The notes: generated by a model not told the origin, from the sequence alone. Positions 4,308 through 12,431 are shown, counted from the first letter of the stretch. The stretch: 17,571 nt of DNA from a virus (IMGVR_UViG_2740892230_000036), one strand, 5' to 3'. Made by a program: numbers and translations.

Positions 4308-6582
4308 AGCCTCCGGGCGTTTTGTCCCTCCGTCAGCATTTGCCGCAGGCACCGGTGAGACGTTTACCGGTGCTTATGCATGGAACGCGCCACGCGAGGC
4401 CGTCGGGCGCGAAAGACCCCTTACACGTGACGAGATGCGTCAGGTGCAAGGTGTTTTATCCACGATTAATCGCCTGCCTTACTTTTTGCGCTCGCTGTTT
4501 ACTTCACGCTATGACTACATCCGGCGCAATAAAAGCCCGGTGCACGGGTTTTATTTCCTCACATCCACTTTTCAGCGCCGTTTATGGCCGCGTATTGAGC
4601 GCGTGAATCAGCGCCATGAAATGAACACCGACGCGTCGTTGCTGTTTCTGGCAGAGCGTGACCATTATGCGCGTCTGCCGGGGATGAATGACAAGGAGCT
4701 GAAAAAGTTTGCCGCCCGTATCTCATCGCAGCTTTTCATGATGTATGAGGAACTTTGCGATGCATGGGTTGATGCACATGGCGAGAAAGAATCGCTGTTT
4801 ACAGATGAGGCGCAGGCGCATCTGTATGGTCATGTTGCTGGCGCTGCACGTGCTTTCAATATTTCCCCTCTCTACTGGAAAAAATACCGTAAAGGACAGA
4901 TGACCACGAGGCAGGCATATTCTGCCATTGCCCGCCTGTTTAACGATGAGTGGTGGATTAGTCAGCTTAAAGGCCAGCGTATGCGCTGGCATGAGGCGTT
5001 ACTGATTGCTGTCGGGGAGGTCAATAAAGACCGTTCACCTTATGCCAGTAAACATGCCATTCGTGATGTGCGTGCGCGCCGCCAGGCAAATCTGGAATTT
5101 CTTAAATCGTGTGACCTTGAAAACAGGGAAACCGGCGAGCGCATCGACCTTATCAGTAAGGTGATGGGCAGTATTTCTAATCCTGAAATTCGCCGGATGG
5201 AGCTGATGAACACCATTGCCGGTATTGAGCGTTACGCCGCCTCAGAGGGTGATGTGGGGATGTTTATCACGCTTACCGCGCCGTCAAAGTATCACCCGAC
5301 ACGTCAGGTTGGAAAAGGCGAAAATAAAACCGTCCAGCTTAATCACGGCTGGAATGATGAGGCATTTAATCCAAAGGATGCGCAGCGTTATCTCTGCCGT
5401 ATCTGGAGCCTGATGCGCACGGCATTCAAGGATAATGATTTACAGGTCTACGGTTTGCGAGTCGTCGAGCCACACCACGACGGAACGCCGCACTGGCATA
5501 TGATGCTTTTTTGTAATCCACGCCAGCGTAACCAGATTATCGAAATCATGCGTCGCTATGCGCTCAAAGAGGATGGCGACGAAAGAGGAGCCGCGCGAAA
5601 CCGTTTTCAGGCAAAACACCTTAACCGGGGCGGTGCTGCGGGATATATCGCGAAATACATTTCAAAAAATATCGACGGCTATGCACTGGATGGTCAGCTC
5701 GATAACGATACCGGCAGACCGCTGAAAGATACTGCGGCGGCTGTTACCGCATGGGCGTCAACGTGGCGCATCCCGCAATTTAAAACGGTTGGCCTGCCGA
5801 CAATGGGAGCTTACCGTGAGCTACGTAAATTGCCTCGCGGCGTCAGCATTGCTGATGAATTTGACGAACGCGTGGAGGCTGCACGCGCCGCCGCAGACAG
5901 TGGCGATTTTGCGTTGTATATCAGCGCGCAGGGCGGGGCAAATGTCCCGCGCGATTGTCAGACTGTCAGGGTCGCCCGTAGCCCGTCGGATGAAGTTAAC
6001 GAGTACGAGGAAGAAGTCGAGAGAGTGGTCGGCATTTACGCGCCGCATCTCGGCGCGCGTCATATTCATATCACCAGAACGACGGACTGGCGCATCGTGC
6101 CGAAAGTTCCGGTCGTTGAGCCTTTGACTTTAAAAAGCGGCATCGCCGCGCCTCGGAGTCCTGTCAATAACTGTGGAAAGCTCTCCGGTGGTGATACTTC
6201 GTTACCGGTTCCCACACCTTCTGAACATGCCGCAGCCGTGCTTAATCTGGTTGATGACGGTGTTATCGAATGGAATGAGCCAGAGGTCGTGAGGGCGCTC
6301 AGAGGTGCATTAAAACACGGACTGAGAACACCAAATCGTCAGCAGAGAAACGGAAGCCTGTTAAAACCACATGAAATAGCGCCATCGGCCAGACTGACCC
6401 GGTCGGAACGAACGCAAATTACCCGTATCCGCGTTGACCTTGCTCAGAACGGTATCAGGCCGCAGCGATGGGAGATTGAGGCGCTGGCGCGTGGGGCAAC
6501 CGTAAATTATGACGGGAAAAAATTCACGTATCCGGTCGCTGATGAGTGGCCGGGATTCTCAACAGTAATGGAGTGGACATGA
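4297..6582 (+). CDS. A: Rolling-circle replication initiator A (HUH endonuclease), 761 aa
   Basis: ORF track 4255-6582; in-frame ATG at 4297 gives 761 aa, the P2 A length. HUH-type motif (…GTPHWHMMLF…) and paired active-site tyrosines (…GYIAKYISKN…). Confidence 0.92.
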   Translation: MAVKASGRFVPPSAFAAGTGETFTGAYAWNAPREAVGRERPLTRDEMRQVQGVLSTINRLPYFLRSLFTSRYDYIRRNKSPVHGFYFLTSTFQRRLWPRIERVNQRHEMNTDASLLFLAERDHYARLPGMNDKELKKFAARISSQLFMMYEELCDAWVDAHGEKESLFTDEAQAHLYGHVAGAARAFNISPLYWKKYRKGQMTTRQAYSAIARLFNDEWWISQLKGQRMRWHEALLIAVGEVNKDRSPYASKHAIRDVRARRQANLEFLKSCDLENRETGERIDLISKVMGSISNPEIRRMELMNTIAGIERYAASEGDVGMFITLTAPSKYHPTRQVGKGENKTVQLNHGWNDEAFNPKDAQRYLCRIWSLMRTAFKDNDLQVYGLRVVEPHHDGTPHWHMMLFCNPRQRNQIIEIMRRYALKEDGDERGAARNRFQAKHLNRGGAAGYIAKYISKNIDGYALDGQLDNDTGRPLKDTAAAVTAWASTWRIPQFKTVGLPTMGAYRELRKLPRGVSIADEFDERVEAARAAADSGDFALYISAQGGANVPRDCQTVRVARSPSDEVNEYEEEVERVVGIYAPHLGARHIHITRTTDWRIVPKVPVVEPLTLKSGIAAPRSPVNNCGKLSGGDTSLPVPTPSEHAAAVLNLVDDGVIEWNEPEVVRALRGALKHGLRTPNRQQRNGSLLKPHEIAPSARLTRSERTQITRIRVDLAQNGIRPQRWEIEALARGATVNYDGKKFTYPVADEWPGFSTVMEWT
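6148..6167 (+). other. Candidate P2 ori / A-protein nick region inside the A gene
   Basis: gcgcctcggagtcctgtcaa lies in the 3' quarter of A, where the P2 origin is known to reside. The exact nick-site sequence is from memory and unverified. Confidence 0.35.
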
Positions 6583-7034
6583 TGGCAAAAATTCACGAGG
6601 TAAAGCTGCACGCAAAATATTTCGACCTTGTGCTGGAAGGAAAGAAACGCGCAGAGTTTAGGAAAAATGACCGTAATTATGAGCACGGGGACACGTTGAT
6701 TTTGCATGAATGGGTGCAGGGTGTGTATACGGGGCGAAAGGTTGAAGCCCGGATAACAGATGTTACTGACCTGTCAGATTGGCTGGAAGATTATGTCTTG
6801 CTAAGTATTGAGCTGCTTAATACAGGCGCATATGAGATTGTGAACTGGAAAGAACTTAGTGAGCGTGGTCTGGTATTCAGAATTAATCATGAAATTATGC
6901 ATCAGCTCGGCCTTGCTGTTATGTATGAACCAGAGACGGGGATGTCTGGCGGGGCAATGGTTGCCACGGATGGAGCATGGAACTATTCAGATGAACAGAT
7001 GGAGCGTGCACCGCAAAACGGGTGGCTTGGATAA
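6579..7034 (+). CDS. P2 orf91-like protein with ASCH/PUA-like (DUF3850-type) fold, ~151 aa
   Basis: ATG at 6579 overlaps the A stop; motif …KYFDLVLEGKKRAEFRKNDRNYEHGDTLILHEW… is typical of ASCH-like phage proteins. Start could be 6582. Confidence 0.75.
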   Translation: MMAKIHEVKLHAKYFDLVLEGKKRAEFRKNDRNYEHGDTLILHEWVQGVYTGRKVEARITDVTDLSDWLEDYVLLSIELLNTGAYEIVNWKELSERGLVFRINHEIMHQLGLAVMYEPETGMSGGAMVATDGAWNYSDEQMERAPQNGWLG

Positions 7035-7240
7035 TGCACAGAATACCAGGCGAGATACCGCACCATAAAACTAAAAATATCAAGCTGATGGCCATTGTTC
7101 ACCGTCTACAGCAGATTATGGTCAACGAAAATCTGACGCCCGATGAGCTAGTCGGGTGTGCCGAAATAGTCCGGGATAATTACGTATGGCTTAGCTATAT
7201 CGGTCAGTCCAGCGCTGCATCGCCACCACGCAGACGATAG
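7034..7240 (+). CDS. Hypothetical small protein (68 aa) at the hotspot boundary
   Basis: ATG overlaps the orf91 stop (TAATG); backbone-like composition; no recognisable domain. Alternative GTG start at 7022. Confidence 0.5.
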   Translation: MHRIPGEIPHHKTKNIKLMAIVHRLQQIMVNENLTPDELVGCAEIVRDNYVWLSYIGQSSAASPPRRR

Positions 7241-7429
7241 AGAACGCAGCCAGCTCAGGATTGGCGGGGGATAGAATAACGAGCATAGTGATGCGATTAG
7301 ACAAACAGACTGACTGGTACACTTAGGATGGTTATAGTGGTTTCTAAGTGCTTTAGCGATACATCTGGTGGACTGTTTTACCAACCTCAGAGTTAGCTGA
7401 ATTTTTAACAAAATACCATTTTGATAGAT

Positions 7430-7457
7430 TTGCCTAATTTATTAATTAAACTATACT
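7430..7457 (+). promoter_or_regulatory. Candidate sigma70 promoter for the plus-strand cargo operon (-35 TTGCCT 7430-7435, 16-bp spacer, -10 TATACT 7452-7457)
   Basis: Hexamers read directly in the AT-rich leader ~90 bp upstream of the 7549 start. Many alternative AT-rich hexamers exist nearby. Confidence 0.3.
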
Positions 7458-7548
7458 GGACTTATACACAGTGTTCTGTTAATTGTTAGGTTGGTAAGAT
7501 ATTGTGAGGAGGTGATTACTATCTTGGCATCAATCAAGTGGAGGTTAA

Positions 7549-7785
7549 ATGATGAATATATTTGAACGTATTATAGGTAAAGCTGCCATTGAAAAGGAAA
7601 GAGAACTGGCGAGGAGGCTTGAAGCATCTGGAACAAACACTGTTGAGGTGGTAGGTCGAGGCGCGATTATCACGTCTAAAGAAGACTTGGCAAGCTCAGA
7701 TACAGTAAAATTGATGAAAATTAAAGCAAGAAGAATAGTTTCTGAGCAGGTAAAGCAAGAAGAAAAAATGGCTAAAGGGAATTAA
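7549..7785 (+). CDS. Cargo gene 1: small soluble charged protein (78 aa), unknown function
   Basis: SD GTGGAGG 4-7 nt before ATG 7549/7552; AT-rich codon usage unlike the P2 backbone; stop 2 nt before the next gene's ATG. No domain recognised. Confidence 0.75.
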   Translation: MMNIFERIIGKAAIEKERELARRLEASGTNTVEVVGRGAIITSKEDLASSDTVKLMKIKARRIVSEQVKQEEKMAKGN

Positions 7786-7787
7786 TA

Positions 7788-8549
7788 ATGTTTGCTTTAT
7801 TAATTATTCCATTACTTGTGAGTGGTTATATTGTATTAACCACTCATCCTTATCATTTCTATAGATTACACCGTTATGATGGGCAGTTGTTATATATGAA
7901 GTCAGCCGCCTTTGGTCTGTGGTGTTTTATATGGACATTGATTATAGCTTACTTAATAAAATGGATATGTCCGAGCTTCCATCCTGTCACGATGGTTCGG
8001 GAACAATTAGATCTCAAACTTAGTGATAATGGTACTGAAAGAATCATAGGATGGATGATTTTACTTTCATGTGGATCGATATTTTTGGCTTGGATATGGA
8101 GTGCCGGTGCTAGATATTTGGTTATATATAGAGCTAAAATTATAAATTATATCCAAGGGGTAAAGGCTGCCAATATTGATTATGAGAATCTTGTCATGCT
8201 AAGGATGAGGCAAGAGCTTATTAATGATAATCCAATGGATGAAATATTTTTTGATTCGTTAGTTGATAGACGTTCAATACTTATTACGTTGCAAAATAAA
8301 AAGACATATGTAGGAATTGTTAACGCATTAGGTGAGCCTAACGAGAAAGAAGGACCTAACCAGTATGTTTCAATCTATCCTATTATCTCTGGGTATAGAG
8401 ATAAGGATTCATTGAAAGTAATCTTGGTGAATGAATATAGAGAACTTGAGGATGCTGATACTAGTATCATCTTTCCACTAAAAGAAATTTCGCAAGTTTC
8501 TTGGTTTGATATGGATATTCATAAAATAGTTGAAAATAATAAGGTGTAG
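7788..8549 (+). CDS. Cargo gene 2: membrane protein with 3 N-terminal TM helices plus ~145-aa C-terminal soluble domain (253 aa), unknown function
   Basis: Hydrophobic stretches FALLIIPLLVSGYIVLTT, AAFGLWCFIWTLIIAYLIKWI and IIGWMILLSCGSIFLAWIWSAGA, followed by a hydrophilic domain. Operonic with the 78-aa gene. Confidence 0.85.
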   Translation: MFALLIIPLLVSGYIVLTTHPYHFYRLHRYDGQLLYMKSAAFGLWCFIWTLIIAYLIKWICPSFHPVTMVREQLDLKLSDNGTERIIGWMILLSCGSIFLAWIWSAGARYLVIYRAKIINYIQGVKAANIDYENLVMLRMRQELINDNPMDEIFFDSLVDRRSILITLQNKKTYVGIVNALGEPNEKEGPNQYVSIYPIISGYRDKDSLKVILVNEYRELEDADTSIIFPLKEISQVSWFDMDIHKIVENNKV

Positions 8550-8552
8550 TAA

Positions 8553-8577
8553 ATGGTCACCTATAAAAGGTGACCAT
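8553..8577. terminator. Bidirectional intrinsic-terminator-like hairpin between the convergent cargo operons
   Basis: Perfect 9-bp stem atggtcacc / ggtgaccat with loop tataaaa, 4 nt after the plus-strand stop (8549) and 6 nt before the minus-strand stop (8583-8585). T-rich tract ttattttt follows on the plus strand; A/T-rich on the other side. Confidence 0.5.
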
Positions 8578-8582
8578 AATGC

Positions 8583-10847
8583 TTATTTTTGACGAATCCT
8601 GATTTTTGGTTGTTCACGAACAACAATATCAGTTTCTTTCCAACCAAGATTATTTATTTCAACCTCGGCTTCGTTGTAGACTGTAGTAGAATTGGCAAGA
8701 GATCTTAACGTAATAGCCAATACAGCACGTTGAGGTGAAGATAGAGGCTCTTGCTCTGCTCGTCTCTGAACATCAAGTTTAAGTCTCCATTGCTCCCCAT
8801 TTATACCTTGCGGAAATTGTTTTCTATAAACTTTGACTGGAGACCATTTGAAGCCATTTTCTATCAGTACCTTTTCAAATAATTCACTCTTTTCTTTTAT
8901 TTGTGGAATTTTTCCGCTATGTATCCATTTAGCGTTAACTGGATCATAAGTGTAAGTCCCGAATGACACATCCACATTAGAACGGCAATATTCAGATGGG
9001 TAGTCATAATCAAGCGGTGGAGAATAAACGAGTGTCATAATAATTTCACCTGTGAATTTTCCATCCTCAGTACGTAATGACTGTGGTATTACAAATGGCG
9101 TTCTACTGAATTCAATACCTTCTCGGGTATCTATTTCAAATAGAAATGTAATCTCATTTTTATTGCAACCAATAATATCATTTATATGATCGCTTGGGCG
9201 TCCAAATCCTTGATAATTAAACGCATAATGCTCCGTTTTGGCTGGTGAGTTTTTTAACGCAGAATGAATTAATAGTGCCTTGATACGTTCAGGCGATGGT
9301 GAAATAGAACCATTAACATCTAGTTCATGCCACAGTGATGCCGCTAAACTTGAGATTAACGGTGCTGATAAACTTGTGCCAATACTTTCGCAAAGAGCAT
9401 TGTCCTCGCCAATAGCTATGATTCCGGTATGTTCACAGTTTAATTTACTGTCACAATTACCTCCAAAGTGATTTATCTCTGGTTTGGGTATAAAGGCTGG
9501 GCCGGGACCTCTTCTAGAAAAAGATGAAGGTTCAAATCTTTTGACCACAGAGTCAGACGATTCTAAATGGGCAACTGAGCCAACAGTTAATGAACGAACA
9601 GAATCTGCGGGGGCTGATATTCTGTCATGCCCACCTAATTCTTGAGGAGGCCAGGTTCGTTGAGGATCATAAATGTAGTTGCCGGATGCTACGACGAAAA
9701 GACAATCATGCTCATCATGAAGTGCATTTAAAAAATGCCCCAATTCAGAGAAGCTGTCTTCAGAACATGGGGATTGACAACCTAATGACAGGTTCCATAC
9801 ACGTACTTCTGGATAGGTGGTCACAGCCTCTCGGATAGCTTTCATTAATTGTGGCAATTTGAGCGTACCATCTTTGGGAAAGGCTGCAACATCAACAATT
9901 TCAGCTTGGCATTGAGGAAAACCAGCATAGTTATTCAACCATCTTCCATTAATTGCTAAACTTGCAACCATGTTCCCATGAGAATAGTCGTGTTCTCCTT
10001 TTACTAAATCTAAACTATCCCAAATCCATGGCCTAAGTATGTTGTTATTGGGATCGACTCCGCTATCTATAATTCCGAGTAGTGGATAATGTTTATCCTC
10101 TTGAGGTAAGGGAAAATCATCTAGGTCTAGAGTTTCAGCAGGAATATATTGCGATACTGTATGAGTAAGACCAAATGTTGGCATAGGTTCTAATTTTCGT
10201 ATGCCAATAAAACTTGCCAGTTGGGCGATGTTATCATTCCCTTTTACTTCATATATACTCAAATCTGAACTGATATCATACTTTTTGGGTTTTTGTATTC
10301 CTAGTTCATCTGCAAATTCCATTAATTCTTTGTCGATACTGCGGTTAGTTGTTCTATCTTTATGGTCAAAGAGTTTCAGAAGAAAACTATCTGATTTATT
10401 TTTATCTATAACATCATGGTTAAGACTAAAAGGTTCGATCTTTTCAATTACAGCAATATGTACTGTCCCATTATGAGAATTAGTGCTATTTTCAATTTTT
10501 TTGCGAAGTTGTGCTAACCCTTTTTCAGTAACACTTATAAGTAATTCTCCAAAATTATCACTGCCTATTACGGGACATGTATTATCACCTAATAGGCTTG
10601 ATGGGCGATGTGACTTAGCAAGAGCTTTTTCATGAAGAGTAACTCTAGCCACCGCCGGTATATTGGGCCATTTTTTAAATGAGCTCTGGAAAAAATTTTT
10701 AACGTCATCGACTTCTTGTTTGAGTCTATTTTTTAGACTAGTTGTTACTGTTCGGATAGGTTGTTTCTTTCCGAAATTATATGTTTTTTCAGTAAAATCT
10801 TGAGGTGTCGCCTCAATTATTTTTATTGGTCTTTCTTTGTTACTCAT
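8583..10847 (-). CDS. Cargo gene 4: subtilisin-like serine protease (peptidase S8), 754 aa, with uncharacterised N- and C-terminal extensions; IetS-like
   Basis: Catalytic motifs in canonical order: Asp (…LLGIIDSGVD…, ~D261), His (…DYSHGNMVASLA…, ~H290), oxyanion Asn (…VVASGNY…), Ser (…IGTSLSAPL…, ~S492; codon at 9372-9374). Start ATG overlaps the ATPase stop (ATGA). Confidence 0.88.
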   Translation of the reverse strand: MSNKERPIKIIEATPQDFTEKTYNFGKKQPIRTVTTSLKNRLKQEVDDVKNFFQSSFKKWPNIPAVARVTLHEKALAKSHRPSSLLGDNTCPVIGSDNFGELLISVTEKGLAQLRKKIENSTNSHNGTVHIAVIEKIEPFSLNHDVIDKNKSDSFLLKLFDHKDRTTNRSIDKELMEFADELGIQKPKKYDISSDLSIYEVKGNDNIAQLASFIGIRKLEPMPTFGLTHTVSQYIPAETLDLDDFPLPQEDKHYPLLGIIDSGVDPNNNILRPWIWDSLDLVKGEHDYSHGNMVASLAINGRWLNNYAGFPQCQAEIVDVAAFPKDGTLKLPQLMKAIREAVTTYPEVRVWNLSLGCQSPCSEDSFSELGHFLNALHDEHDCLFVVASGNYIYDPQRTWPPQELGGHDRISAPADSVRSLTVGSVAHLESSDSVVKRFEPSSFSRRGPGPAFIPKPEINHFGGNCDSKLNCEHTGIIAIGEDNALCESIGTSLSAPLISSLAASLWHELDVNGSISPSPERIKALLIHSALKNSPAKTEHYAFNYQGFGRPSDHINDIIGCNKNEITFLFEIDTREGIEFSRTPFVIPQSLRTEDGKFTGEIIMTLVYSPPLDYDYPSEYCRSNVDVSFGTYTYDPVNAKWIHSGKIPQIKEKSELFEKVLIENGFKWSPVKVYRKQFPQGINGEQWRLKLDVQRRAEQEPLSSPQRAVLAITLRSLANSTTVYNEAEVEINNLGWKETDIVVREQPKIRIRQK

Positions 10848-12007
10848 AATATCTCTCTATAGTTCTTAGTTAGCCTTGACACTTTAGCATTTGAAAGCCC
10901 TAGTATTTTTGCTATCTTTCGTATTGTAAATCTTTTGGGATTGTATTCTCTGAGAGTGGTCACAATCTTTATAAGTAAATTATCTTCTTCATCAAATGTA
11001 ACTCCCTTCGCTTCTAAGATAGCCTCGACTAAAAATCGGGTATCGATTTGTTTATTATTGTAAACCAGAGCATGTCGCTCAGATCTTAAGCAGCATTGTT
11101 CTATAAATGAGCAGTTTAGCCCTGAGGATATTTCCGCAAGGTCATCAACAAAATCGTCATATGTGGCTTTTATGTTTGAATATTGTTCAAATAGTTGTTT
11201 TCTGACTTCAAAATCAGGCAATCCAATAGATATTCTATACTCAAAGCGCCTCCAAACTGCGCTATCTAGAAGATTTTCATGATTACTTGCAGCAATCAAT
11301 ATTGTTTCTTCAGGTAGATTGTCAATATTTTGCAATAAAGAAACCACCACCCTCTTCAGTTCACCTAACTCATGCTGATCATCTCTAGCCTTTGCTAGAG
11401 AATCTAGTTCATCTAGAAATAAAACACATGGTGCTTTACTTGCATACTCAAATAGCTGCCTGATATTTTTAGAAGTAGACCCCAGATATGATGAGACTAA
11501 GGAGTCACATCTTGCAGTAAGAAGCGGTAAATTTAGACAGGATGCAATATATTTTGATGTCAAGGTTTTACCACAACCTGGTGGCCCATATAAAATCATA
11601 GAGGATGTCACGCCAAGACCGGCATCCTTTAATTCTTTAGCTCGTTCAGTGAAAGTCAAAAATTCTTTAATTTTTTTCAGAGTGCTATCTTTCAACAATG
11701 GGAGTTGAATTTCAGAAGACGGTTGAGTTACGTCTGCTAAATCAAATTTAGTTTCTTTATCTACAGGTAATGTATCAAGACGTTCAAAAATAGGTGATGT
11801 ACTACGTGATACTTTCTGCAAGTTAAACGTGTTTTTATCTTGAATACTGCCTCTAATGGCTGAAGCAAGCTCAGGCAGCCCCATAGAATCATAGGAACGC
11901 GCGAGTTTCGAAGCCTGCCGAACAAAAGCAACTTTATCCCCTTTGAGTCCAAGACTGATAAGCTGCGAAAGTATCTCGTTTGTGGTCATTTGTGATACAA
12001 ACCTCAT
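10844..12007 (-). CDS. Cargo gene 3: AAA+ ATPase (387 aa) with C-terminal HTH-like tail; IetA-like
   Basis: Walker A …ILYGPPGCGKTL… (K~147), Walker B …CVLFLDELDSL…, sensor-1 …IAASN…, Arg-finger region …VWRRF…. C-terminus …IRKIAKILGLSNAKVSRLTKNY… resembles a helix-turn-helix. Alternative start at Met7 (11989). Confidence 0.88.
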   Translation of the reverse strand: MRFVSQMTTNEILSQLISLGLKGDKVAFVRQASKLARSYDSMGLPELASAIRGSIQDKNTFNLQKVSRSTSPIFERLDTLPVDKETKFDLADVTQPSSEIQLPLLKDSTLKKIKEFLTFTERAKELKDAGLGVTSSMILYGPPGCGKTLTSKYIASCLNLPLLTARCDSLVSSYLGSTSKNIRQLFEYASKAPCVLFLDELDSLAKARDDQHELGELKRVVVSLLQNIDNLPEETILIAASNHENLLDSAVWRRFEYRISIGLPDFEVRKQLFEQYSNIKATYDDFVDDLAEISSGLNCSFIEQCCLRSERHALVYNNKQIDTRFLVEAILEAKGVTFDEEDNLLIKIVTTLREYNPKRFTIRKIAKILGLSNAKVSRLTKNYREIL

Positions 12008-12248
12008 TAATCTGTTGTCTAAATGGCTTATAGGTGAGACAAATTTCTATTTTAATGTAGTTTATATGTATTTTGGTGAAACGAACACTATGTTTTACAT
12101 AAATCTTTCAGGTTTGGAGTTCTTGGAGGGCATAGAGTTGCATCAATTTGCATTCTAATTAGACTTTTTTATTGCTATCGTATTCTACATGTGACTAGGT
12201 CTGCCCTTCCTGATGCGTTTGCATTAAAACCGCCCCATGAAGCGGGCG

Positions 12249-12267
12249 GGCGAGGCGGGGAAAGCAC
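12249..12267. other. P2 cos (19-nt cohesive-end sequence)
   Basis: ggcgaggcggggaaagcac matches the P2 cohesive end as I recall it, and sits between the cargo and Q exactly where cos lies in an integrated P2. Confidence 0.8.
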
Positions 12268-12409: not shown

Positions 12410-12431
12410 AAAAAAGCCGCCCGCAGGCGGC
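12410..12431 (-). terminator. Intrinsic terminator after Q (end of the leftward P-Q late transcript)
   Basis: Minus-strand GC hairpin gccgcc-tgcg-ggcggc (12416-12431) followed by TTTTTT (plus-strand A-run 12410-12415), 5 nt after the Q stop. Confidence 0.65.

Follow-up and report, generated by a model that had tools for sequence, protein, structure and literature searches.

The IetAS module is widespread and serves in defence and in plasmid stabilisation; Gao et al. reportedly recognised it as an anti-phage system in 2020. The IetAS/SgiAT systems of pTiC58 and SGI1 are plasmid-stabilising toxin-antitoxin pairs composed of an AAA-ATPase antitoxin, IetA, and a subtilase toxin (PMC13069673; PMC5006074), and the mechanism by which IetAS acts against phages was called unknown in a 2026 paper. 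Across the IetAS literature compared, from which the founding study (Yamamoto 2009) is excluded, IetA appears only as an AAA-ATPase, and neither a helix-turn-helix (HTH) tail nor operator repeats nor autoregulation are mentioned. The predicted DNA-binding domain on many IetA proteins is an added functional part undescribed in that literature, and the three 42-bp-spaced repeats of the ietA leader are new here.

The ietAS locus and the IetA ATPase

The window, a stretch of 17,571 nucleotides, carries an ietAS pair that is prophage-borne, as are many defence systems, the host element being a P2-like prophage of E. coli. The pair shares with IetAS/SgiAT its family by profile, its two-gene order and its coupled translation. 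The longest open reading frame of ietA (10844..12007, minus strand) encodes 387 aa and ends in a stop codon at 10844-10846. The likely true start is M7 (11987-11989), yielding 381 aa, based upon the 381-aa RefSeq protein and cluster representative, the Shine-Dalgarno (SD) sequence GAGG, and conserved homologue leaders aligned to M7. IetA was identified by PADLOC profiles PDLC02196 (E 9.1e-132, residues 9-382 of 387) and PDLC02195 (E 2e-99); given its span, the former profile takes in the C-terminal tail. The downstream gene, ietS (8583..10847, minus strand), encodes the S8 subtilase toxin/effector (PADLOC IetS, E 1e-273; Pfam Peptidase_S8, 85 bits), and its ATG (10845-10847) overlaps the ietA stop codon as ATGA, leaving the two genes co-oriented and translationally coupled.

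The AAA ATPase call rests on Pfam PF00004 (110 bits, residues 137-262). The nucleotide-binding core (11228..11689, minus strand; residues 107-260) was delimited by Pfam, invariant columns and Foldseek, and contains Walker A GPPGCGKT, Walker B FLDELD, the pore loop SYLG and the WRRF arginines. The catalytic motifs are intact: GPPGCGKT, FLDELD, N242, R253/R254 and S172-S173-x-L175-G176 were invariant in a 40-sequence alignment. Foldseek relatives of the core include Rpt, Vps4, p97 D2, FtsH and PAN, and the IetA ATPase is of the classic p97/FtsH/Rpt/Vps4 clade. A PDB sequence search with full-length IetA returned generic classic-clade AAA ATPases only and no solved IetA. The likeness to sigma-54 activators proposed by the sequence-only reading was not supported, as IetA has neither the GAFTGA motif nor a Sigma54_activat domain; no PF00158 match was found in IetA, and the only related hit was Sigma54_activ_2 (E 0.012) over the P-loop region.

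The AAA lid subdomain (11009..11212, minus strand; residues 266-333) is finished before the tail starts, with AlphaFold2 (AF2) lid helices at residues 266-274, 277-280, 286-293, 299-316 and 323-333. PDB sequence alignments to p97 and VCP-like ATPases extend to about residue 313-340 of IetA.

Fold and conservation of the C-terminal tail

The ietA translation ends in ...EYNPKRFTIRKIAKILGLSNAKVSRLTKNYREIL, the same residues quoted by the sequence-only reading, which saw a classical HTH in this region (residues ~353-387, encoded by 10847-10950). Structure prediction bears this out. The predicted HTH tail (10847..11002, minus strand; residues 336-387) was modelled with a pLDDT of ~90 both in full-length IetA and alone, and all of its elements lie on the minus strand: tail helix 1, the scaffold helix of a three-helix unit (10943..10987; residues 341-355 by DSSP on the AF2 model, 338-355 in the AF2 tail at pLDDT 90.7), tail helix 2, the first HTH helix (10901..10924; residues 362-369, IRKIAKIL), the three-residue turn G370-L371-S372 between helices 2 and 3 (10892-10900), and tail helix 3, the presumed recognition helix (10850..10891; residues 373-386, NAKVSRLTKNYREI). 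The core geometry of a three-helix HTH is present, comprising an 8-residue helix 2, a tight turn and the recognition helix, in a unit separate from the complete lid. By this prediction the tail does not continue the lid, the outcome that the sequence-only reading had named as its refutation, and IetA is predicted to carry a small tri-helical HTH domain on a short linker after a classic-clade AAA+ lid.

The 52-residue tail model gave no Foldseek match at E<=1e-3, the E-values being non-significant, so only TM-scores were used for fold comparison. The tail superposes on solved DNA-bound HTH domains, which are its best structural neighbours, and its nearest folds are SorC/DeoR-type and sigma region-4-type HTHs, with a TM of 0.75 to the DeoR DNA-binding domain. 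The suggested Fis-type likeness was not upheld: Fis appeared only at Foldseek rank 15-19 (TM 0.52-0.54), and the IetA tail does not constitute a C-terminal HTH_8 (Fis family) domain.

At the sequence level, 40 homologues, the most distant at 39% identity, keep the tail, with the consensus LRExNxKxFTxRRLAxxFGxSxGKVSxL; S372 is invariant among them, and F360, T361 and K375 are each present in at least 90%. On direct reading of the sequence, residues I365, A366, L369, G370, L371, V376 and L379 fit the classical 20-residue HTH pattern (Brennan-Matthews, Dodd-Egan) at positions 4, 5, 8, 9, 10, 15 and 18. Weak Pfam hits to 34 tails were nearly all to HTH families. The window tail scored below every Pfam HTH gathering cut-off (best HTH_28, 19.8 bits vs 25), while tails from three further IetA clades did pass gathering scores: L105 (HTH_3, 23.5 vs 23), L012 (HTH_24, 22.1 vs 21.9) and L146 (HTH_23, 25.4 vs 24.6). 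The sub-threshold single-sequence hits would suit a reading in which the AAA lid simply ends with this tail, or gains one more helix from it, and looks like an HTH by chance, but the AF2 models contradict this and make it extremely improbable. The conservation, the AF2 helices, the weak Pfam HTH hits and the classical pattern together confirm that the resemblance to an HTH is beyond chance.

In a profile search of the PDB with the tail no significant natural protein was found, the best being SIRV1 ORF55 (E 0.21). The designed 'CAP repeat' 8vd6 reached a whole-sequence E of 6.4e-05, and was set aside because this value is the sum of five weak repeats that are each non-significant alone. Among 1.84 billion representatives, the profile retrieved essentially IetA proteins or fragments and a few tandem-HTH repeat proteins, with no informative second architecture.

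Other IetA clades have different HTH tails, or none. Tail-less pairs accounted for 17 of 69 surveyed IetA-IetS pairs, about a quarter. An Xre-type HTH gene lies directly upstream of ietA in 4 of the 17 tail-less loci, a count that covers tail-less loci alone. The distribution of the tail bears on the other function put forward by the sequence-only reading, namely DNA- or nucleoprotein-triggered activation, in which the tail would be a sensor whose binding to phage DNA or nucleoprotein frees or activates the IetS protease. The DNA-binding fold is consistent with such a sensor, and escape mutations against IetAS fall among phage replication-machinery genes (bioRxiv 10.1101/2022.08.27.505566), which makes a link to DNA metabolism conceivable. 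Against it, many IetA-IetS pairs (the 17 of 69 above) have no tail, and B. cereus IetAS is triggered by expression of the phage protein YosG alone, with phage DNA absent (bioRxiv 10.1101/2022.08.27.505566). The N-terminus of the B. cereus ATPase (m1293) groups with the tail-less clade, from which we infer that this IetA is tail-less, the comparison covering 61 N-terminal residues only. Furthermore, recognition helices vary by clade and track the repeats of their own leaders, not a common phage feature. The sensor role is unsupported and indirectly disfavoured by these observations, and is considered unlikely.

Phased repeats in ietA leaders

The window leader contains three operator-like direct repeats on the minus strand, A (TTCGTTTCA, 12077..12085), B (TTTGTCTCA, 12035..12043) and C (TTTGTATCA, 11993..12001), with the consensus TTTGTaTCA. 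B lies 42 bp downstream of A, and C 42 bp downstream of B. Two of the three fall within the leader region 12008-12200, and the third, C, is located between the SD GAGG (12002-12005) and the M7 start codon. In a search for the best equally spaced triple, TTCGTTTCA / TTTGTCTCA / TTTGTATCA was recovered at 42/42 bp with 7/9 columns identical, a score reached by 0 of 200 shuffles. As 42 bp corresponds to four helical turns, the three repeats all lie on one face of the DNA. Leaders of the enterobacterial clade have repeat A at an unchanged position, and its G, T and T are invariant (alignment A3); conservation of repeat C could partly reflect translation signals, given its site between SD and ATG. 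An inverted-repeat search of the leader found two weak pairs only and no palindromic operator. A scan of the whole window for TTGTNYCR revealed no enrichment (9 found vs 10.4 expected), the relevant copies being only the two 42-bp-spaced ones in the leader.

Repeat A ends 10 nt upstream of a -10-like hexamer, TATAAA (12061..12066, minus strand), which is kept as TATAAA, TATAGA or TATAAT in five leaders (the window, L086, L082, L091 and L088). This hexamer is without a good -35, and a consensus promoter scan of the window leader found none, so the overlap of repeat A with the promoter is uncertain at this locus. Where a near-consensus promoter exists, in L130 (12/12 match) and L120 (11/12), the repeat nearest to it falls within its -35/-10 spacer.

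The array extends to relatives of the window locus. Among 12 leaders of the close clade, from homologues at 47-100% protein identity, 10 have an array spaced by 41-42 bp whose sites lie near -95, -53 and -12 relative to the ATG, and the two remaining leaders are spaced by 21+42 and 63 bp. These leaders come from P2 prophages, a plasmid-like contig with ParB/RepB and a chromosomal site in Pectobacterium. An unbiased triple search chose something other than the 42/42 array in 6 of the 12, owing to the short and degenerate nature of the sites. Within loci of this clade, the three sites did not covary significantly (permutation p 0.28, 0.30 and 0.09), and the claim was dropped.

For the wider family, the best repeat triple was scored as in phase when spaced by 20-22, 41-43 or 62-64 bp. 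Across 52 non-redundant tailed IetA-IetS loci, 28 (54%) had an in-phase best triple compared to 11% in shuffles (binomial p 4e-14, a value that overstates independence because the loci are related by descent), and all 12 triples scoring at least 7/9 were in phase. In the other 24 of 52 tailed leaders the best triple was not in phase; part of the surveyed start codons were assigned with uncertainty. When further 203-nt stretches from the tailed loci were scored, 3/51, 10/52 and 5/52 were in phase. Tail-less loci were in phase in 3 of 17 cases (18%), none scoring 7 or more (Fisher p 0.009), tailed and tail-less IetA being separate lineages with different genomic backgrounds. Phased arrays are a family-wide companion of tailed IetA and not of tail-less IetA.

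Furthermore, the sequence of the leader repeat varies with the type of recognition helix. Helices of the ..AKVSRL type go with TTGTaTCA, the ..SLRKVRDI type with ATAAC(A/G)AA, and ..SKTT(I/V).K(I/L) with TTCGTTC; SSGKVSNI is accompanied by TCTTCATTT, SQSYISERL by AAAATATCG and SERQVRNLL by AAACGCTAC. Such clade-matched repeats, at two or four helical turns, yield an operator model with base-pair coordinates.

Two further readings of the tail are affected by this correspondence. The tail could be an HTH-fold protein-protein module that contacts IetS, the IetS prodomain or a neighbouring subunit, with the repeats bound by another factor or serving another purpose. In the large clade, conservation of the helix-3 motif S-x-G/A-K-V/I-S is unusually strong, to ~40% identity, which could reflect a conserved partner, and HTH-like mitoribosomal units (mS109 and the MRP-L20 Pfam family), which are not transcription factors, are among the best matches. 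However, phased repeats go with the presence of the tail and shift in sequence with its type, the cassette has no other conserved regulator gene, the best structural neighbours are DNA-bound, and the tail has 11 basic vs 6 acidic residues; a protein-binding role is regarded as doubtful. Alternatively, the tail may be a non-specific DNA tether that holds IetA-IetS on the nucleoid or any DNA, without a role in transcription. A basic three-helix domain would be suited to this, with K375 and S377, both conserved, as possible contacts to the backbone, but a tether leaves the clade-specific phased repeats and their placement over promoters unexplained and has a small probability.

Proposed autoregulation and comparison with known systems

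The reading we favour, and hold to be more probable than not, is that the HTH tail of IetA represses its own operon by binding the three phased leader repeats in the manner of an antitoxin. Of the two functions offered by the sequence-only reading, autoregulation of the operon thus appears the better, as phased arrays accompany tailed and not tail-less IetA. In type II toxin-antitoxin systems, autoregulation through the DNA-binding domain of the antitoxin is the rule. Under the proposed mechanism, the IetA tail would recognise candidate operator sites A, B and C in the ietAS leader, which would reach from the -35/spacer region of the promoter across the early transcribed region to the ribosome-binding site. 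In oligomeric form, presumably the hexameric ring known from AAA relatives, IetA would offer several tails at once and may bind the repeat array cooperatively. Occupancy of the array would repress transcription of ietAS and link its expression to how much free IetA is present. From the computed HTH fold, the conservation of the tail, the phased arrays and their association with the tail, we infer IetA as the repeat-binding protein, repression as the outcome and an oligomer as the binding form.

A more far-reaching version, which we consider speculative and rather unlikely, is that IetA is a ring AAA+ unfoldase whose HTH tails read the phased array such that operator occupancy would reflect whether the ring is free, bound to nucleotide, or in contact with IetS or a phage trigger, coupling toxin control to transcription. 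DNA binding might then gate the ATPase, with loss of operator contact in infection helping to release the protease. The existence of tail-less systems suggests that the probable regulation is separable from the core defence mechanism. For construct design, foreign promoters for ietAS or truncation of IetA may alter dosage and toxicity.

A regulatory parallel is offered by type II antitoxins that contain an HTH (e.g. HigA, MqsA and Xre-RES), in which the antitoxin likewise bears the DNA-binding module and autorepresses from sites at its own promoter, where the IetA repeats may also lie; by analogy, a regulatory circuit of the same kind is likely. IetA differs in its size (~43 kDa) and in being an AAA+ ATPase whose pore loops are intact, where type II antitoxins are small and labile, and its candidate sites are direct repeats, in phase at two or four helical turns, in place of palindromes for a dimer. 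In the SorC/DeoR family (e.g. B. subtilis DeoR and K. pneumoniae SorC), the HTH is N-terminal and, in SorC proteins, fused to a sugar-phosphate-binding domain; Pfam and a PDB profile search did not establish sequence homology of the IetA tail to the SorC/DeoR HTH. NtrC-type bacterial enhancer-binding proteins with a Fis-type HTH share with IetA the order of AAA+ domain and C-terminal HTH, as well as, under the proposed mechanism, an oligomeric ATPase on repeated DNA sites, but IetA is of a different AAA+ clade and its candidate sites would lie over the promoter, not at an upstream enhancer. DnaA is an AAA+ protein with an HTH in its C-terminal domain IV, and MraZ is an example of ring-shaped repressors that read direct-repeat arrays. 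Unlike both, IetA is of the classic unfoldase clade and has a protease toxin as its partner, with no origin or replication function implied; direct repeats read by an AAA+ oligomer of the unfoldase type would, if true, make an unusual repressor design.

The ietAS locus and its prophage setting

The ietA open reading frame (10844-12007, minus strand) encodes 387 aa, or 381 aa from the RefSeq start M7, and its translation ends ...RFTIRKIAKILGLSNAKVSRLTKNYREIL, the same C-terminus quoted in the sequence-only reading. The product is an AAA ATPase (Pfam PF00004, residues 137-262) matched by the PADLOC IetA model across residues 9-382 (E 9e-132), and the gene that follows, overlapping by ATGA, encodes the S8 subtilase IetS (E 1e-273). 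The helix-turn-helix (HTH)-like feature is thus the C-terminus of IetA from the known IetAS system.

The window, a P2-like E. coli prophage, has 99.7% identity to NZ_CP024243.1, where the integration site adjoins yegR/yegS. Its gene order is integrase, C-like repressor, cox, replication endonuclease A, cargo, cos, portal Q, terminase P, scaffold O and capsid N. Since portal-side P2 backbone homology stops at ~12220, genes leftwards from that point were assigned as cargo in the A-Q slot. The cargo spans roughly 6582-12219, with IetAS filling the slot flanked by replication gene A and portal gene Q. Only 12 E. coli genomes out of 5,426 complete ones have the whole cassette; the flanks match in 2,156. 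Base composition changes near 12225 from AT-rich cargo to GC-rich backbone, with two terminator-like hairpins (12230-12249 and 12416-12431) beside the switch. The palindrome ATGCAAACGCAT (12213-12224) lies exactly on the P2 backbone/cargo junction and a direct pair, ATGCAA-N4-ATGCAA (12138-12153), ~70 bp within the cargo; equivalent ATGCA-N4-5-(A)TGCA pairs recur at both positions in other ietAS loci borne by P2 and are missing from the two non-P2 loci. Palindrome or pair could be a candidate cargo-exchange site or phage regulator site.

A further cargo gene of the same hotspot, just 3' of gene A (6546-7034, plus strand), encodes DUF3850/ASCH (64.5 bits) and DUF7415 domains. Convergent to ietS is a 253-aa ORF (7788-8549, plus strand) whose N-terminal part is predicted to form membrane helices and which has no match in Pfam or PADLOC; a small ORF (7549-7785, plus strand) lies just upstream. 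Homologues of 253-257 aa occupy the same place 3' of ietS in 10 further examined loci of the window's IetA clade, some of them in non-P2 settings (one plasmid-like contig, one Pectobacterium chromosome), with identities (87%, 74%, 51%) that follow those of IetA. Among distant IetAS loci, the one compared, L173, has no homologue, and L174 has a 216-aa ORF. The ORF may be a third gene of the window-clade IetAS cassette.

Architecture of IetA and its C-terminal tail

Sequence and fold searches placed the IetA core in the classic clade of AAA proteins, retrieving p97 D2, a VCP-like ATPase, FtsH, proteasomal Rpt/PAN and Vps4, with no solved IetA structure among the matches. Walker A, Walker B, an arginine pair and the canonical pore loop S-S-Y-L-G were invariant in a 40-sequence alignment. 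The resemblance to sigma-54 activators suggested earlier is limited to layout, the only thing shared, because window IetA has neither GAFTGA nor a sigma-54 interaction domain and its core is of the classic clade. Residues 205-221 (window ~11345-11395; A-K-A-R-D-D-Q-H-E-L-G-E-L-K-R-V-V), after Walker B, were almost invariant in 40 homologues (down to 39% identity). Its counterpart in generic AAA proteins, the pore-loop-2 region, is far less conserved. The stretch is probably specific to IetA function.

An AlphaFold2 model on the 40-sequence alignment (mean pLDDT 82.8) contained a confident N-terminal three-helix bundle (residues 9-56, window 11840-11983, minus strand) and a disordered linker preceding the AAA core (residues 59-85, window 11753-11833, minus strand; pLDDT below 50). 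This layout recalls the MIT domain and linker found in AAA ATPases of the Vps4 and katanin types, and the bundle could be the partner- or substrate-recognition domain. The tail might have been a continuation of the AAA lid lacking HTH geometry; the AlphaFold2 models contradict this. In the full-length one, a complete lid (helices 266-274, 277-280, 286-293, 299-316 and 323-333) precedes a separate unit in which helices 341-355 and 362-369 are followed, after a turn of three residues, by helix 373-386 (pLDDT about 90). Modelled by itself on its own 34-sequence alignment, the tail gave the same three helices (pLDDT 90.7).

The tail is kept across the 40-sequence alignment, at identities down to 39%, with the consensus LRExNxKxFTxRRLAxxFGxSxGKVSxL, in which S372 is invariant and F360, T361 and K375 are at least 90% conserved. 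Window IetA's tail reached the gathering score of no Pfam HTH family. Weak matches of the 34 tails were nearly all to HTH families, the exception, MRP-L20, being probably due to HTH-like mitoribosomal proteins among the structural matches. One homologue (P0077) is named 'DNA-binding protein' by NCBI, which suggests that automatic annotation picked up something there. Conservation, modelled helices with their turn and sub-threshold HTH matches together argue that the HTH-like tail is real. A protein-protein role for this unit is conceivable, given that the helix-3 motif is strongly kept within the large clade and ribosomal proteins are among the best fold matches.

IetA-like genes adjoining S8 genes were surveyed in GTDB genomes, IMG/VR contigs and assemblies. 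Tailed forms (about 360-440 aa) carry a C-terminal HTH-like tail, whereas tail-less forms (about 305-350 aa) end directly after the lid. Several tail sequence types were found (e.g. ...S.AKVSRL, ...GVTQKE..SLRKVRDI, ...SKTTI.KI, ...GMPHNTLSYQINK and ...GASTVSRY), and tails of three non-window clades exceeded the Pfam gathering threshold of HTH_3, HTH_24 or HTH_23. A window-type tail profile searched against 1.84 billion representative proteins retrieved almost nothing but IetA proteins and C-terminal fragments of them. From the survey and profile search, the tail is an accessory module in part of the IetA family.

Sensing of phage DNA by the tail, the basis of the DNA-triggered activation once proposed, is disfavoured, since about a quarter of surveyed systems have no tail. 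Furthermore, B. cereus IetAS, which works through abortive infection, is triggered by expression of the phage protein YosG alone (10.1101/2022.08.27.505566), and its IetA clusters with the tail-less clade, as judged on 61 N-terminal residues. In 4 of the 17 tail-less loci, the set in which the count was made, ietA is immediately preceded on its own strand by a small gene of the Xre-type HTH_3 family (Pfam 32-53 bits; L152, 3716-3958; L154, 3674-3952; L155, 3740-3952; L167, 168-482). Such a gene may give in trans what the tail gives in cis.

Phased direct repeats in ietA leaders

Alignment of ietA leaders from homologues with 54-100% protein identity revealed three conserved blocks, which all repeat a single motif, GT-N-(T/C)-C-(A/G), with the extended consensus TTTGTaTCA. 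In the window these are site A (TTCGTTTCA, 12077-12085), site B (TTTGTCTCA, 12035-12043) and site C (TTTGTATCA, 11993-12001), all on the ietA coding strand and spaced by exactly 42 bp. A -10-like TATAAA (12061-12066) begins 10 nt past the end of site A; a consensus promoter scan of the leader found no promoter. Site C sits 3' of the Shine-Dalgarno GAGG and 5' of the M7 start codon, and its conservation may come partly from translation signals. These three sites, at 41-42 bp spacing, were present in 10 of 12 leaders of the window's clade, among them leaders from a ParB/RepB/resolvase contig and from a Pectobacterium chromosomal site, neither in a P2 prophage, and the two most distant members had spacings of 21+42 and 63 bp. 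Covariation among the sites within the clade was not significant.

An unbiased search for the best 9-mer triple with equal spacing recovered the window's 42/42 array (7/9 identical columns, a score reached by 0/200 shuffles) and independently picked out the same array in five more leaders. The search was applied to 69 non-redundant ietA-ietS leaders, best triples spaced at 20-22, 41-43 or 62-64 bp being counted as in phase. For tailed IetA, 28 of 52 leaders (54%) were in phase against 11% expected from shuffles (binomial p 4e-14, counting loci related by descent as independent), and all 12 triples of at least 7/9 were in phase, each with p<=0.05. For tail-less IetA the values were 3 of 17 (18%), 9% and 0 (tailed versus tail-less, Fisher's test p 0.009, again among loci related by descent). 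Control regions of 203 nt from elsewhere in these tailed loci gave 3/51, 10/52 and 5/52 in phase. Nearly half of tailed leaders had their best triple out of phase, partly because of uncertain start codons and short sites.

The repeat unit varies by clade and tracks tail type: six loci whose tails are of the ...SLRKVRDI type have ATAAC(A/G)AA at 20-21 bp spacing, four with ...SKTT(I/V).K(I/L) tails have TTCGTTC at 21 or 42 bp, and three further tail types have TCTTCATTT, AAAATATCG and AAACGCTAC. One locus (L130) has a fourth repeat within the spacer of a perfect TTGACA-17-TATAAT promoter, and another (L120) a third repeat within that of an 11/12 promoter. As judged from sequence, conserved architecture with a repeat that changes together with the recognition helix is what a regulator and its operator would be expected to show. 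A tail acting as a non-specific DNA tether would leave these clade-specific arrays unexplained.

Putative autoregulation of ietAS

IetA serves as antitoxin in a toxin-antitoxin-like pair (PMC13069673; PMC5006074). Phased repeats in its own leader, associated with the tail, favour operon autoregulation, the other option raised by the sequence-only reading; here IetA would itself bind the arrays. The tail would be the antitoxin's DNA-binding domain, an IetA oligomer would present several tails to sites on one DNA face, and binding over the promoter would repress ietAS. Taken together, this is the most economical reading and, in our judgement, a reasonably probable one. Direct rather than inverted repeats would better fit identical subunits arranged head-to-tail in a ring or spiral than a two-fold dimer.

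The operator model for ietAS is directly testable. An HTH on IetA, operator repeats and IetAS autoregulation are unmentioned in the searchable literature, a scope outside which the founding 2009 paper falls; the IetAS system itself is already known, and autoregulating antitoxins are common.
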